Part shown: positions 39,359-48,383 of the stretch, piece by piece
How the letters are laid out: every line of letters starts with the position of its first letter
Position numbering within the stretch: position 1 is the first letter of the stretch
Assembly: GCA_050179755.1 (NCBI GenBank)
Contig: JBFXEV010000001.1
Span: forward strand, 201,994-265,993
Reading direction: 5' to 3'
Origin: Candidatus Babeliales bacterium
Lineage (GTDB): Bacteria > Babelota > Babeliae > Babelales > JBFXEV01
DNA: 64,000 nt
The notes under the pieces: model-generated
What the model saw: the letters and a program-made list of their open reading frames with translations, nothing else
Database searches by the model: none
Told to the model about the DNA's origin: nothing
Made by a program: the position numbers and the translations under genes

Positions 39359-39468
39359 TTATTATAATCTTAATTACTATTTTTTGTGGTAATCTCTAGA
39401 CATTGAATTAAGGAATTCTGTAAGCTTACCTTGAAATAATAGTAATGCCTTATATAAGGAGTATCATA

Positions 39469-39810
39469 ATGGCATATAGCGTTAAATCTAAAAAAAGCGG
39501 GAAGACTTATTATCTTCACTCAAAAACAGTAACACTTGCTGGTAACCGCAAACAATTAATTTATTACTTTGCTGGCGTAGCAGAAAAAAATGCAATGAAT
39601 GCATTACCTGCTGGCTATGAAGTAATGGAAAACTCTCGCACTGGTTTGCCTATGTTACGCAAAGCTGGCGGTGCCAAAAAAGCTGCAAAGCCTGCTGCTA
39701 AAGCAAAACCTGCCGCAAAACCGGCCGCTAAAGCTAAGCCTGCTGCAAAACCGGCTGCTAAAGCAAAGCCTGCTGCAAAAGCTAAGCCCGCTGCAAAAAA
39801 GAAGAAATAA
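39469..39810 (+). CDS. Small basic protein with histone H1-like PAAKAK tail
   Basis: AAGGAG RBS; globular N-domain (YYLH...IYYFA...GYEVMENSRTGLPMLRK) plus Lys/Ala/Pro repeats. Confidence 0.85.
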   Translation: MAYSVKSKKSGKTYYLHSKTVTLAGNRKQLIYYFAGVAEKNAMNALPAGYEVMENSRTGLPMLRKAGGAKKAAKPAAKAKPAAKPAAKAKPAAKPAAKAKPAAKAKPAAKKKK

Positions 39811-41264: not shown

Positions 41265-41525
41265 ATGGGTAACAAGCAGCAAAAACGTGGAAAGCTATAT
41301 TTGCAAATCCTATCCAATCAAATGTAAGATGGAAGGATATTGAAAATCTCTTTATCAGCGTGGGAGCTAAGATTTCTGAAGGGAACGGCTCGAGAGTGTA
41401 TAGAATTAAATGGAGTTAAAGCTGTCTTTCACCGGCCACATCCACATCCTGAAACAGATAAAGGGGCTTTAATGTCAGTTCGTAAGTTTTTAATAAATGC
41501 GAGGATATCTTATGATGAAATATAA
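41265..41525 (+). pseudogene. hicA: HicA toxin, two frameshifts
   Basis: Stitched frames give KAIFANPIQSNVRWKDIENLF...ISEGNGSRV/IELNGVKAVFHRPHPHPETDKGAL; shifts near 41283 and 41399. Confidence 0.85.
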
Positions 41526-41826
41526 AGGGTATATTGGGCACGTAGAATACGATTCTGAAGCAAAGGTATTTCACGGTGAAGTCATTGGTTTAAAAGATGT
41601 CATTACCTTTCAAGGCACTACTGCCGAAGAAATTGAACAGGCATTTAAAGATTCAATCAATGATTACCTCATATGGTGTAAGGAACGTGGCGAAGAACCA
41701 GAAAAAACTTATTCGGGAAATATTCGACTTAGAATGTCTCCTGATATTCATGCACGCCTTGCCTTAGAAGCTGCACGACAAAAAATAAGCCTAAATGATC
41801 TTATTAATCAAAAGTTATATAAATAG
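41512..41826 (+). CDS. hicB: HicB antitoxin
   Basis: MMKYKGYIGHVEYD, FHGEVIGLKDVITFQG, YSGNIRLR, SLN. Confidence 0.93.
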   Translation: MMKYKGYIGHVEYDSEAKVFHGEVIGLKDVITFQGTTAEEIEQAFKDSINDYLIWCKERGEEPEKTYSGNIRLRMSPDIHARLALEAARQKISLNDLINQKLYK

Positions 41827-44431: not shown

Positions 44432-44467
44432 GTTTGCTCACGCCAGCCAATGTGCTATAATTAAACT

Positions 44468-44614
44468 ATGAAACATATTATAATTGCATCTCACTCTTCA
44501 TTCTCAGATAGTATTCAGGGCTTTAACAAAACAGCCATTAGCCTATTGTGCCTAAATCTCACTAGTTATTCTTATTGCTCTTATAATTCTGGGGAATTGA
44601 ATATACTTTCATAA
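44468..44614 (+). CDS. Tyr-rich leader peptide (48 aa)
   Basis: MKHIIIASHSSFSDSIQGFNKTAISLLCLNLTSYSYCSYNSGELNILS*; TGnTATAAT ends 6 nt before the ATG. Confidence 0.6.
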   Translation: MKHIIIASHSSFSDSIQGFNKTAISLLCLNLTSYSYCSYNSGELNILS

Positions 44615-44636
44615 CAATAGTTAGATATAAGATAGT

Positions 44637-44671
44637 AAATCCCCGGCATAAAAATCCGGGGATTTTTTTTT
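44637..44671 (+). terminator. Attenuator terminator 1
   Basis: aaatccccgg-cataaaaat-ccggggattttttttt just before the RBS. Confidence 0.85.
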
Positions 44672-44682
44672 AAAGGAATCAC

Positions 44683-45636
44683 ATGAAAAACTTAACAAAA
44701 CTAATAATCGCATTGAGCCTCACCTTAGGTGCAAGCGCATGGCTCATATTAAAACATAAACAACAACATACCACGTTAGGCCAAAAACACACCACTATTG
44801 GTATTTTGCAAACAGCATCACACCCTGCGCTTGATGCAGCGCGCCAAGGATTTATAGAAACACTCAAACAAGCTTTACCTGAAAACATTGAATTCATCGT
44901 GCGTAATGCAGAAGGCTCAATCCCTGCAGCGCACACCATTTCACAAAGTTTTAAAGCACATAATCTAGACGGCATTTTTGCAATCGCAACTCCTGCAGCA
45001 CAGGCAGCAGCTTCACTTATACACGATACACCTATTTTTATTGCAGCAGTAACAGACCCTCAAGCTGCGGGTATTTGTAAAGAAACTGTAGGTGGTTGCA
45101 CCGATATGGTTTCACTTGAAAAAACAATAAACTTACTGCAAAAGCTCGCTCCTTCTGCGCGTAACATTGCCATTCTTGCAAATACTGGTGAAATTAATTC
45201 CCAAGTTCAAGTGAGCACTCTGCAAGAAATACTAAAAACTCGCGGGTTAAATCCACTCATTTTTGGTTTTACTTCAGAAGCAGATGTAGCAACCGCAGTA
45301 ACTTCTGCCGCTCTTAAAGCAGACGCCATTCTCGTGCCAAACGATAATACAATTTCTTCTAGTATTACATTGGTGGCTGCACTTGCATTAAAACATAAAA
45401 AACCTCTTATTGCATGCGATACCATGCTCGTTGCAAAAGGCGTGCTGGCAGCAAACGGCGTTGATTACCATGCAACAGGAGTGCAAGCAGCGCACCAAGC
45501 GCTTGAAGTACTGCGTGGCAGCACAAAAGGAATGACTATTGAGCAGCCGCAACAAGAAATGATCATGATTAATAAAAAAGTTGCTGACACGTTGCAGATT
45601 AACGTGCCAGAAGAGCTAGCCAAATTTGCTATTTGA
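44683..45636 (+). CDS. ABC substrate-binding protein, TrpX/aromatic amino acid type
   Basis: IGILQTASHPALDAARQGF, AIATPAAQA, FIAAVTDP, VPNDN, GVDY. Confidence 0.88.
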   Translation: MKNLTKLIIALSLTLGASAWLILKHKQQHTTLGQKHTTIGILQTASHPALDAARQGFIETLKQALPENIEFIVRNAEGSIPAAHTISQSFKAHNLDGIFAIATPAAQAAASLIHDTPIFIAAVTDPQAAGICKETVGGCTDMVSLEKTINLLQKLAPSARNIAILANTGEINSQVQVSTLQEILKTRGLNPLIFGFTSEADVATAVTSAALKADAILVPNDNTISSSITLVAALALKHKKPLIACDTMLVAKGVLAANGVDYHATGVQAAHQALEVLRGSTKGMTIEQPQQEMIMINKKVADTLQINVPEELAKFAI

Positions 45637-45660
45637 AAACTTTTGTGCTAAGCTACTTCT

Positions 45661-45813
45661 ATGAACCAAACTAAAACTCTACCTCACAACTCATTACCAA
45701 ATACTGTGAATAATGCCCTTACAACGGCACATAGCACTCTTTTTGCTCAAATCTATACCTTTGCGTTTATTTACTTTAGTAAGCCGGGGCTTTTGAGCAT
45801 GCTTTTCTATTAA
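45661..45813 (+). CDS. Phe/Tyr-rich leader peptide (50 aa)
   Basis: MNQTKTLPHNSLPNTVNNALTTAHSTLFAQIYTFAFIYFSKPGLLSMLFY*; TGnTAAGCT ends 6 nt before the ATG. Confidence 0.6.
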   Translation: MNQTKTLPHNSLPNTVNNALTTAHSTLFAQIYTFAFIYFSKPGLLSMLFY

Positions 45814-45834
45814 AATATAAGAAATAAAAGCACC

Positions 45835-45868
45835 AAATCCCCGGCATAAACACCCGGGGATTTTTTTT
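45835..45868 (+). terminator. Attenuator terminator 2
   Basis: aaatccccgg-cataaacac-ccggggatttttttt. Confidence 0.85.
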
Positions 45869-45906
45869 GCCCAAAATTTACTTTTTTTATTTTTAAGGAA
45901 CTTATT

Positions 45907-46869
45907 ATGAACAGCATAACAAAACTCAGTATCGCAACAATTTTAACACTTATTGCAGGCGCAGTAGTACTCACTAGGTATCAACAACCTGCTGCCACAA
46001 ACATGCTCACCATTGGTATTTTACAAACTGCCTCGCATCCTGCGCTAGACGCCACACGCCAAGGATTCACTGACACCTTAGAAAAAGAACTGCATGGCAA
46101 CATACAGTTCATTATACGCAATGCAGAAGGCTCAGTTCCTGCAGCACATACGCTTGCACGAAGCCTTAAAGCGCACAATATCGATGGCATCTATGCAATC
46201 GCAACACAAGCTGCCCAAGCAATTGCCAACATGGAACAAGAAAAGCCTATTTTCATTGCAGCAGTTACCGATCCTCAAGCTGCGGGCATTTGCAACCAGA
46301 ATGTGTGTGGCTGCACAGATAAAATATCCATTGAAGCTACTATCAATCTCTTGCAAGAACTAGTGCCGCATGCGCAACGAGTAGCAATCATTGCAAACAG
46401 CGGAGAAGTTAATTCCCAAGTGCAAGTTAATCACATGCAAGAGCTATTAAAAAGCCATGGCTTAACGCCTATTGTATTCGGTTTAACGTCAGAAGCTGAT
46501 GTTGCACCCGCAACAACAAGCGCAAGCCTGAAAGCTGATGTGCTCTTGGTGCCCAATGATAATATTATAGGCTCAAGCATTCAACTTGTTGCAGCAATTG
46601 CTTTGAAACATAATAAAGCCGTGATTGCATGTGCAAATACGTTTGTGGAGCAAGGAGCATTGGCAGCACGTGGTGTTGATTATTATAAAACTGGTGCACA
46701 AGCTGCTCACCAAGCACTTAAAGTGCTGGTGAACGGTGTATCACCTCGAGAGATCTCACTGGCAGATCCAGATGAAGGTATCGTCACTATTAATACAAAA
46801 ATAGCTGATGCATTAAGAATAATTATTCCCGACGTATTACTAAAAAACAGCGTATTTGTTAAAGGATAA
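45907..46869 (+). CDS. ABC substrate-binding protein, TrpX/aromatic amino acid type (paralog)
   Basis: Same motifs as 44683-45636. Confidence 0.88.
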   Translation: MNSITKLSIATILTLIAGAVVLTRYQQPAATNMLTIGILQTASHPALDATRQGFTDTLEKELHGNIQFIIRNAEGSVPAAHTLARSLKAHNIDGIYAIATQAAQAIANMEQEKPIFIAAVTDPQAAGICNQNVCGCTDKISIEATINLLQELVPHAQRVAIIANSGEVNSQVQVNHMQELLKSHGLTPIVFGLTSEADVAPATTSASLKADVLLVPNDNIIGSSIQLVAAIALKHNKAVIACANTFVEQGALAARGVDYYKTGAQAAHQALKVLVNGVSPREISLADPDEGIVTINTKIADALRIIIPDVLLKNSVFVKG

Positions 46870-46871
46870 CC

Positions 46872-47696
46872 ATGCTATCACTTTTACCCATTCTTGAAGG
46901 CGTTATTGAACGAGGGTTATTATTCTCTCTGGTTGTTGTTGCCGTATACTTAACATCACGCATAATTAAGTTTGATGATCTTTCGGTAGAGGGCAGCTTT
47001 GGCATTGGTGGCGCAGTAACCGCTGCCTGCCTTGCGCACGATATTTCTATAATCATTGCACTACCACTTGCACTGCTTGCAGGAGCACTCACCGGTATGG
47101 CAACAGGCTTGCTGCATACGAAACTCAAGTTAAATAACTTAATGAGTGGTATTATTGTGACTACCGGACTATTCTCTATTGCACTTAAACTTGCATCCTC
47201 CAATGTTGGTTTATCACATGCCACTACCTTATTTACCTATGCGCCGCATACAATAATAGTATTAATTATAATAAGCGTATTAATTGCCTGGGGCGTGCTT
47301 TGGTTGTTGCATACAGAAGTTGGTTATATGCTCTACGCTGTAGGATCAAATGAGCGTATCCTCACTACGTTAGGCAAAAATATTGATACGTATAAAATTG
47401 GTTGCCTCATGCTTGCAAATAGTATTACCGCACTTGCAGGATCATTATTTGTGCAGTTAGTAGGCTATTTCTCCATATGGTCAAACGTAGGTATGCTCAT
47501 AATTGCAATGACAGGCCTTATTCTTTCAGAAATGATAACTACTCACATCACTTTCTGGAGTTTGCTTTTGGGCTCAATACTCTACCAAGGCATTATTGCA
47601 GCAACATTTGAATTTCAACTTGACCCTAGTTGGAACAAATTAATTACTGCACTACTTCTTGTAGCATTACTATCCATTAAACAACTACGCAAATAA
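46872..47696 (+). CDS. ABC permease (TrpY-like)
   Basis: DLSVEGSFGIGG, GLLHTKL, LANSITALAGSL. Confidence 0.9.
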   Translation: MLSLLPILEGVIERGLLFSLVVVAVYLTSRIIKFDDLSVEGSFGIGGAVTAACLAHDISIIIALPLALLAGALTGMATGLLHTKLKLNNLMSGIIVTTGLFSIALKLASSNVGLSHATTLFTYAPHTIIVLIIISVLIAWGVLWLLHTEVGYMLYAVGSNERILTTLGKNIDTYKIGCLMLANSITALAGSLFVQLVGYFSIWSNVGMLIIAMTGLILSEMITTHITFWSLLLGSILYQGIIAATFEFQLDPSWNKLITALLLVALLSIKQLRK

Positions 47697-47705
47697 GGCA
47701 TTACC

Positions 47706-48383
47706 ATGTTAGAATTACAAAACATTTCAGTTTCTTTCAATGATACGAAAGTACTCAATAATCTTTCATGCATCATTAAAAACGGTGCGCGCATTGTACT
47801 AGTGGGCGCTAATGGTTCAGGCAAAACAACGCTTTTTAATGTTATTCAAGGCAGCATAATGCCTGACCAAGGCCAACTCATTCTTGATGGTGTTGATTGC
47901 ACCAAACAAACAGCCCAGCAGCGTGCAAGCTGGATCAGTTGCTTGTTGCAAGACCCCACACGTAATACGGTGCCAACACTGACAGTGGCACAAAATCTTG
48001 CAATGGCGCTTTATAAAGGCAAAAAAGTACGCTTAAGAAATGGCGTAGCCACCCTGCAGGAGCACCCTGAAGTTAGTGCAATACTTAAAAAATTGGGGCT
48101 TGATCATCTCTTAGAACGGCCCATGGGCAGTATTTCTGGTGGGCAACGCCAATTAATTGCGTTTATTATGGCCACCATTATTCCGCCTAAAATATTATTG
48201 CTTGATGAACCAACAGCTGCGCTTGATCCTAAGGCAAGCACCTTATTGCTTGATTTTGCACAAGAATATATTAAAGAACATCAAATCACCACTTTGTTAA
48301 TCACGCATGATCAACAGATTGCAGCAACGTTTGGTTCAGAAACATGGCAGATGAAAGATGGTAATCTTATCACAAAGCTTTAA
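47706..48383 (+). CDS. ABC ATP-binding protein (TrpZ-like)
   Basis: GANGSGKT, ISGGQRQ, LLLDEPTAALDP. Confidence 0.93.
   Translation: MLELQNISVSFNDTKVLNNLSCIIKNGARIVLVGANGSGKTTLFNVIQGSIMPDQGQLILDGVDCTKQTAQQRASWISCLLQDPTRNTVPTLTVAQNLAMALYKGKKVRLRNGVATLQEHPEVSAILKKLGLDHLLERPMGSISGGQRQLIAFIMATIIPPKILLLDEPTAALDPKASTLLLDFAQEYIKEHQITTLLITHDQQIAATFGSETWQMKDGNLITKL

Follow-up and report, generated by a model that had tools for sequence, protein, structure and literature searches.

In a 64,000-nucleotide stretch of the genome of Candidatus Babeliales bacterium (assembly GCA_050179755.1, contig JBFXEV010000001.1, positions 201,994 to 265,993; hereafter the window), two paralogous binding proteins of an amino acid ABC importer are each preceded by a short open reading frame (ORF) and an intrinsic terminator. 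These ORFs probably encode the leader peptides of ribosome-mediated attenuators, the first joining a tyrosine sensor to a tyrosine-type ligand pocket and the second joining a phenylalanine-type pocket to a leader that is rich in Phe codons and keeps Tyr codons. Control of this kind, with divergence of the two proteins to Tyr and Phe, had been proposed in a sequence-only reading of the same DNA, and its attenuation component is now supported by conserved leaders in relatives and by computed folding around a masked ribosome. The attenuation mechanism itself is of the classical trp-operon type. The contribution of this locus lies in the twin arrangement, a pocket residue that matches, repeated independent origin and apparent leaderless starts; the specificities of sensor and transporter appear to have shifted jointly.

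The locus reads, on the plus strand, ORF1, hairpin 1, binding protein 1, ORF2, hairpin 2, binding protein 2, permease and ATPase. A promoter-like site (44434-44461; -35 TTGCTC at 44434-44439, 16-nt spacer with TG, -10 TATAAT at 44456-44461) lies 6 nt upstream of the ATG of leader 1, with no Shine-Dalgarno sequence in between. Leader peptide 1 (44468-44614) has 48 codons, with Tyr34, Tyr36 and Tyr39 starting at 44567, 44573 and 44582 (44567-44584 overall), and is without Phe past codon 19. The candidate antiterminator segment CTGGGGA (44589-44595) pairs with the 5' arm of intrinsic terminator 1 (44637-44671; 10-bp hairpin, 9-nt loop, 9 T, -15.0 kcal/mol), and the gene for binding protein 1 (44683-45636; 317 aa, PF04392, a predicted tyrosine binder) begins 11 nt past the T-run; since this leaves no room for a promoter, gene 1 needs read-through. 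The second unit starts with a promoter-like site (45626-45654; -35 TTGCTA at 45626-45631, 17-nt spacer with TG, -10 TAAGCT at 45649-45654) whose -35 box overlaps the final codons of the protein 1 gene and which again lies 6 nt upstream of the leader ATG; both promoter-like sites were recognised purely by consensus match. Leader peptide 2 (45661-45813) has 50 codons, with Phe28, Tyr32, Phe34, Phe36, Tyr38 and Phe39 at 45742-45777. In a predicted anti-antiterminator hairpin of the 1:2 type (45744-45799; -15.5 kcal/mol) these Phe/Tyr codons are paired with the G-rich segment, GCCGGGG (45783-45789). Intrinsic terminator 2 (45835-45868; 10-bp hairpin, 9-nt loop, 8 T, -14.7 kcal/mol) separates this leader from binding protein 2 (45907-46869; 320 aa, PF04392, a predicted phenylalanine binder), which is followed by the shared permease (46872-47696; 274 aa, PF02653) and the shared ATPase (47706-48383; 225 aa, PF00005).

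On re-reading, every coordinate in the sequence-only reading (the Tyr codons and both G-rich segments among them) proved correct. The same architecture does stand before each gene, namely a promoter-like site, a 48- or 50-codon ORF, a G-rich segment and a hairpin with U-tract, and gene content and Pfam matches bear out two PF04392 proteins with one permease and ATPase in common. A search for the hairpin pattern with at most one mismatch found just two sites in the 1,525,295-base genome, the two leaders. A generic promoter and terminator scan, with a loop limit of 3-8 nt against the 9-nt loops here, listed neither promoter nor hairpin. The leaders can be aligned with each other from the -35 box through the U-tract, and are therefore one duplicated module in which leader and gene were duplicated together.

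Transcription would start at or beside the leader AUG, and a ribosome would translate the leader. When the charged tRNA is short the ribosome would stall on the aromatic codons, which lie 16-41 nt before the G-rich segment; the freed segment would then capture the terminator's 5' arm by base pairing, allowing RNA polymerase to continue. When charged tRNA is ample the ribosome would cover the G-rich segment, or in leader 2 the 1:2-type hairpin would hold it, and the terminator would form. Promoter 1, leader 1 and terminator 1 would thus yield protein 1 when charged tRNA-Tyr is short, and promoter 2, leader 2 and terminator 2 would yield protein 2, the permease and the ATPase when tRNA-Phe is short. 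Via Tyr32, leader 2 would probably also be induced by a shortage of tRNA-Tyr, as the common membrane parts would need, and this OR step is the least sure part of the mechanism. The mixed Phe/Tyr content of leader 2 fits the gating of a permease and ATPase common to both proteins, and in all five of the five twin loci with both leaders located the second leader contains both Phe and Tyr.

Folding shows that such a switch is feasible. Of 100 shuffles, 2 matched the strength with which the G-rich segment of leader 1 pairs with the 5' terminator arm, and none of 100 did so for leader 2; this pairing (above 98 and 100 of the shuffles, respectively) together with folding around a masked ribosome upholds the earlier view of these segments as antiterminators. 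In the masked folding a ribosome-sized footprint was hidden on the leader RNA, and the calculation was repeated over 12 footprint settings. The terminator of the full leader 2 has a probability of 1.0 unless the ribosomal A-site is at one of codons 25-36, when it falls to 0.02-0.60 (0.38, 0.08, 0.17 and 0.02 at Phe28, Tyr32, Phe34 and Phe36). For nascent leader 1 the antiterminator probability stays at 0.89-0.99 through codon 36 and drops to 0.29-0.50 from codon 38 to codon 48. The pattern persists with 15- and 18-nt upstream masks and with 6-15 nt masked downstream. An antiterminator that excludes the terminator and is exposed on stalling is therefore clear by computation for leader 2 and is found for leader 1 on nascent RNA only. 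In 38 of the 40 leaders that carry a hairpin, the segment that pairs best begins within a range from 50 nt upstream to 16 nt downstream of the leader stop.

The codon clusters differ in how far they stand out. Six Phe/Tyr codons within 12, as in leader 2, were reached by 1.6% of base shuffles, and three Tyr within six codons, as in leader 1, by 8.3% of 5000 base shuffles; a short ORF with clustered codons for the amino acid handled downstream is thus weakly evident from leader 1 alone and strongly so over the relatives. The proposed contrast of a Tyr leader with a Phe leader holds for the Tyr-only cluster of leader 1, while leader 2 is mixed (four Phe and two Tyr) rather than purely Phe. A branched-chain interpretation of leader 1, prompted by a run of Val/Ile/Leu in the +1 frame, was rejected: in that frame a stop codon lies a short way upstream and a start codon is lacking, and what relatives conserve is the aromatic frame.

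Both proteins belong to PF04392 (186.8 and 176 bits, cut-off 25.9), occur with a PF02653 permease and an ABC ATPase, and protein 2 is 59-61% identical to protein 1. Their sole sequence matches in the PDB are CD0873 (6HNI), VC_1101 (3LKV) and SP1069 (3LFT), and a model of protein 1 (mean pLDDT 91.7) has the same three entries as its top fold matches (TM 0.74-0.81). The ligands of these three are Tyr, Phe and Trp, respectively, according to PMC6816091, where Glu263 of CD0873 is described as binding the Tyr hydroxyl and as being Ala in the Phe and Trp binders, Tyr279 corresponds to Gln in the Trp binder, and CD0873 was stabilized in fluorimetry by Tyr alone of 20 amino acids. The CD0873 numbering was transferred with an offset of 21 residues, fixed by Val235/Pro236 and Ala262 in the alignments, and the relevant stretches are gap-free. 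Protein 1 has Asp246 (codon 45418-45420) at the Glu263 position and Tyr262 at the Tyr279 position, and so combines an acid with Tyr as a Tyr-type pocket does, with Asp in place of Glu. Protein 2 has Ala243 (codon 46633-46635) and Tyr259 at these positions, the combination of a Phe-type pocket. By the published rule protein 1 is predicted to be Tyr-type and protein 2 Phe-type, each matching its own leader. This evidence, which extrapolates from three structures, is independent of the leaders. Divergence of the pair toward Tyr and Phe thus agrees with the pocket residues, Asp246 against Ala243; the clean two-sensor picture drawn earlier is too simple, most leaders being mixed.

Orthologues (E 1e-30 or better) were found in 70 of the 261 genomes of the order, and proteins assigned to Candidatus Babeliales are among the named homologues. 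Among 85 orthologue upstream regions, 26 have a promoter-like site scoring at least 15 and lying 5-9 nt before an ATG, and 21 of these 26 best promoter-plus-ATG sites open a frame of 41-54 codons; the -35 consensus was derived from these same leaders, and ORF length was not a selection criterion. Among 30 ORFs, 24 could be decided, and in 19 of these the aromatic run shares the frame of the ATG. In the present genome 12 of the 1144 long ORFs have such a promoter-ATG site before them, against 67 of 3432 in the control, and genome-wide there are 16 short-ORF matches, both leaders among them. Taken as sequence patterns, these sites suggest that the leader peptides are translated from leaderless starts. 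Many relatives are without a leader, the binding-protein gene sitting within an operon. A search of the contigs for related loci returned one match, an unrelated Tissierellales locus, and one apparent leader (G036) proved to be antisense to the start of a divergent gene and was discarded.

Several loci of relatives depart from the common layout. In G171:C9 (L054/L103) two Phe/Tyr leaders in series, each with a hairpin, precede one Asp/Asp operon and form a double attenuator. At L122 the second leader begins 2 nt past the stop of the first binding protein, with no space for a promoter of its own, which suggests reinitiation and two gates in series. At L082/L102 (G247:C1, about 1081100-1081500) a Tyr-containing ORF without a hairpin stands between a Phe-rich leader that has one and a His-type protein; this second ORF is possibly the remnant of a lost paralogue. 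Four loci (L055, L062, L074 and L080, in G250, G252, G254 and G251, respectively) show a terminator-like hairpin soon after a promoter-like site, with no leader ORF found, for which a decayed attenuator or a leaky damper is a possible reading. At L047 (G208) the promoter-proximal frame is weakly aromatic and another frame has a Tyr/Phe run at the usual position, possibly through a frameshift or assembly error. Five genes (L037, L039, L063, L036 and L059, in G085, G092, G133, G136 and G209) lie directly 3' of a putative branched-chain/aromatic aminotransferase gene, read as such from its translation, so that any leader would be further upstream.

The association of leader codons with pocket type was followed on a quick tree of 90 proteins (84 orthologues of the order, two from Tissierellales and four outgroup sequences). 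Fifteen of the 90 are without the acid, which requires nine changes, at least six of them forced by strong branches. Proteins 1 and 2 are sisters (support 99), which makes their duplication lineage-specific; P0002 and P0003 show the same Ala/Asp pair. Where two copies share an operon, 9 of 12 genomes pair an Asp copy with an Ala, Val, His, Tyr or Phe copy. The share of Phe was scored in the best 12-codon window of 51 leaders, 50 of which have at least three Phe/Tyr codons. Its median is 0.30 in 41 Asp-only leaders and 0.67 in nine leaders with a non-acidic copy in the unit (p 2e-4). A second set came from 79 metagenome loci, from which 7 near-identical to genomes already used, one duplicate and 22 with Tissierellales proteins as nearest were dropped; it comprised 53 genes under a fixed scoring rule, 25 of them with leader and hairpin. 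Here the median Phe share is 0.33 in 18 Asp-only and 0.57 in seven non-acidic cases (p 7e-4), and kinship inflates the p values of both sets. All 14 non-acidic proteins have a leader richer in Phe than that of the nearest Asp-only relative, comparisons that are not independent of one another. An independent-pairs test, with G104 and the second G171 leader left out, gave seven pairs on 74 rows, of which on average 5.5 ran in the same direction and none in the opposite one. In twin-leader loci with an Asp and a non-acidic copy and both leaders located, the Asp copy comes first and has the Tyr-richer leader in four of four, with Phe shares for first and second leader of 0 and 0.67 at this locus, 0 and 0.33 in G130, 0.2 and 0.83 in G145, and 0.4 and 0.71 at L122; at L113 the first leader was not found. 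The expected conservation of leaders is thus present in relatives, and their Phe share tracks the pocket, with three exceptions (L130, G110 and G161) that break the rule.

A number of findings weigh against this assignment. On the RNA side, the antiterminator pairing beats 95 of 100 shuffles in just 13 of 40 leaders (G104, G159 and G246 being left out of this test). Where compensatory changes between segment and arm were looked for, cognate pairing scored -12.1 against -10.5 kcal/mol for swapped partners, a biased comparison in which each segment was chosen for its own arm; under the same bias the clear cases of cognate over swapped pairing are G171, G160 and G161. In leader 1 the terminator wins at equilibrium for every ribosome position, which requires a kinetic switch there. 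Once the ribosome sits on the stop codon, the antiterminator of the nascent RNA climbs back to 0.3-0.9 in leader 1 and 0.85 in leader 2 unless more RNA is masked, and masking the entire 5' part abolishes most of the equilibrium switch in leader 2. Four relatives (G250, G251, G254 and G252) retain a hairpin with no leader located, and the Tyr cluster of leader 1 is weak taken alone (p 0.08). On the side of specificity, the side chain of Asp does not reach as far as that of Glu, a contact of Asp with the Tyr hydroxyl is presumed, and the His, Tyr, Phe and Val substitutions in relatives are without structural precedent in the three solved proteins. The 51 genome leaders were selected by hand. In Corynebacterium glutamicum, according to the review PMC11802643, the Phe-Tyr-Phe leader aroR answers to Phe and not to Tyr; Tyr codons are thus no guarantee of a Tyr response. 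The remaining points of this kind concern the mixed leaders.

Asp-only units carry 83 Phe against 170 Tyr codons, and most orthologous leaders are mixed whatever the pocket. At L130 a Phe-only first leader precedes an Asp protein and the second leader is mixed, both proteins being Asp-type, and in G110 and G161 Phe-rich leaders precede Asp proteins. The independent-pairs result is borderline, with a median p of 0.03 when the Phe-share threshold is 0.5, 0.125 when it is 0.55 and 0.06 by unit, and 3 of the 12 two-copy operons are Asp/Asp. These observations would suit general attenuators of aromatic shortage, with both proteins binding Tyr and Phe with overlapping affinity and with codon differences that arose by drift in U-rich DNA, UAY and UUY differing by one base. 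Such drift would not be expected to run in the same direction in both data sets and in all four within-locus contrasts, nor would it account for the 14 Phe-richer leaders of non-acidic proteins, related as these are; and CD0873, with its response to Tyr alone, and the repeated loss of Asp in one copy of a pair speak for distinct ligands. On this evidence a general aromatic response is unlikely, if the most credible of the alternatives. As an observation on layout, the twin leaders of L130 are each followed by two consecutive hairpins.

If the leaders do attenuate, Rho-dependent termination or translational coupling might act rather than the hairpin switch alone. Hairpin-less leaders occur in G009, G016, G060, G129 and G145 and before the Trp-type paralogues described below; in some relatives the leader ends in an aromatic run followed by pyrimidine-rich RNA without a hairpin; Rho is present in the genome; and the equilibrium behaviour of leader 1 points the same way. 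At this locus, both hairpins carry 8-9 T and have a complementary segment at the classical distance, and the Shine-Dalgarno sites (44673 and 45895) fall outside both hairpins, which makes this alternative improbable. Least credible of all is a reading in which the hairpins simply end transcription of the upstream 418-aa gene and of gene 1, as ordinary or leaky terminators, and in which the ORFs are untranslated by-products of U-rich intergenic DNA: both leaders lie directly 3' of a same-strand gene, folding of leader 1 as a whole does not surpass that of shuffles (z -0.36) and the few hairpins without a leader would fit, but the length and frame of the ORFs behind the best promoter-ATG sites, the rarity of such sites before ordinary genes with both leaders among the 16 short-ORF matches, and codon types that follow pocket type, Trp leaders included, leave it hardly any room.

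Paired attenuators with a Tyr sensor and a Phe-rich, Tyr-keeping sensor therefore remain the preferred reading, and a history can be proposed for them. A tandem duplication of leader and binding protein would have been followed, in copy 1, by retention of the Asp pocket for Tyr and the shedding of Phe codons from the sensing window, so that it would respond to Tyr; in copy 2 the Asp would have become Ala, for Phe, in company with a leader that grew Phe-rich and kept its Tyr codons. A wider generalization is offered tentatively, with rather less assurance. In Babeliales-like intracellular parasites a leaderless sensor and a one-residue pocket switch may have co-evolved repeatedly, each duplication of a Tyr importer yielding a Phe-type copy as its leader shifted from UAY to UUY; in cases where neither copy has lost its leader, the upstream leader would be a sensor for a single amino acid, leader 1 being purely Tyr-responsive, and the downstream leader an OR gate on the common permease and ATPase, and with the Trp leader of the third paralogue the host's pools of all three aromatic amino acids would be read separately, by ribosomes alone.

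The genome is 96% complete and has 34 tRNAs, including one tRNA-Tyr and one tRNA-Phe. At that completeness no match was found for prephenate dehydratase or prephenate dehydrogenase, and the single PF00275 match is presumably MurA, judged by the motif of that enzyme; uptake therefore matters. T-box RF00230 had no match in the window or the genome, in a search whose control passed the cut-off in 2 of 14 genomes. A cultured relative depends on host amino acids, and the group is described as fully host-dependent with few regulators (PMC6561590). Distant PF04392 paralogues mostly have Glu at the position of the Gln of the Trp binder, and 9 of 14 have directly upstream a short ORF ending in Trp codons, followed by pyrimidine-rich DNA. 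The third PF04392 paralogue of this genome is among the five of 14 without a directly adjacent Trp ORF, its operon beginning one gene earlier. There, at G000:C1:886448 (minus strand; L099), a leader of 30 codons that ends with two Trp codons is followed by a pyrimidine-rich stretch without a hairpin, and the operon comprises a 175-aa ORF, the third PF04392 protein, which has Glu where the Trp indole would be bound, and the permease and ATPase. This leader is likely a Trp attenuator; that attenuation at the Trp leaders is Rho-dependent is a guess.

Elsewhere in the window, a 121-aa ORF at 39445-39810 has a Lys/Ala/Pro-rich repeated tail and a histone-like look. Tandem ORFs of 61 and 109 aa at 41340-41826 resemble a HicA/HicB-type pair.

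In the classical attenuators of Escherichia coli (pheL-pheA, pheM-pheST, trpL and hisL), a short ORF with a run of cognate codons is combined with competing antiterminator and terminator structures and a U-tract. The present leaders share with pheL, trpL and hisL (Rfam Phe_leader RF01859, His_leader RF00514) the codon run, the competing structures, the U-tract and the classical distance from sensing codons to antiterminator; they differ in having 48-50 codons, in being apparently leaderless, in standing before an importer, in having one Tyr-only window and in occurring two per cluster. The best Rfam match of both leaders is Phe_leader, at 27 and 25.3 bits, below the gathering score of 55, and they are not members of that family; across the window the Rfam search gave two tRNAs alone at gathering level and sub-threshold matches alone at the E-value level. 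The review PMC11802643 summarizes pheL and pheST attenuation, and describes in C. glutamicum aroR-aroF a mixed Phe/Tyr leader that likewise serves an aromatic amino acid function; unlike this locus it governs biosynthesis (DAHP synthase), is a single unit and has a Phe rather than a Tyr response. Importers of the TrpXYZ/CD0873 type belong to the same PF04392 family, with Asp or Ala here in place of Glu at the Tyr-hydroxyl position, and C. difficile likewise has two neighbouring PF04392 paralogues (PMC6816091). The trpXYZ genes of Streptococcus suis are under T-box control (PMC9382623), whereas no T-box was found in this genome, and switches between T-box and leader peptide are documented (PMC2965389). 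Closest in its leaderless short-ORF sensor at the head of an operon is the mycobacterial polycysteine system (bioRxiv 10.1101/834739), where short ORFs (sORFs) sense Cys and act on translation through a structure hiding the ribosome-binding site, as opposed to an intrinsic terminator here. Leaderless starts look rare in this genome, unlike the setting of the mycobacterial sORFs. Salmonella mgtCBR reportedly has two short-ORF attenuators on one transporter cluster, both in one leader and responding to different kinds of signal; here each attenuator heads its own paralogous gene. In a literature search outside the older comparative surveys of attenuation, no description was found of a tyrosine leader peptide, of an attenuator of a PF04392 importer or of attenuation in Babelota. 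The available text of PMC2965389 and PMC4833913 does not mention tyrosine or phenylalanine, and the supplements of PMC2965389 list ABC-transporter candidates that could bear on priority.

If the proposed reading is true, these loci are a natural repeated experiment in which the specificity of a regulator shifts along with that of the protein under its control, by single-base steps on both sides: UAY to UUY in the leader, and Asp to Ala, Val, His, Tyr or Phe in the pocket. Leader codons would then allow ligand prediction in an importer family of which three ligands are solved, also for pocket variants that have no structure, and leader 1 would be a short, portable candidate for a Tyr-only ribosome sensor. 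It would also mean that fine control over amino acid uptake exists in a fully host-dependent group with few regulators.

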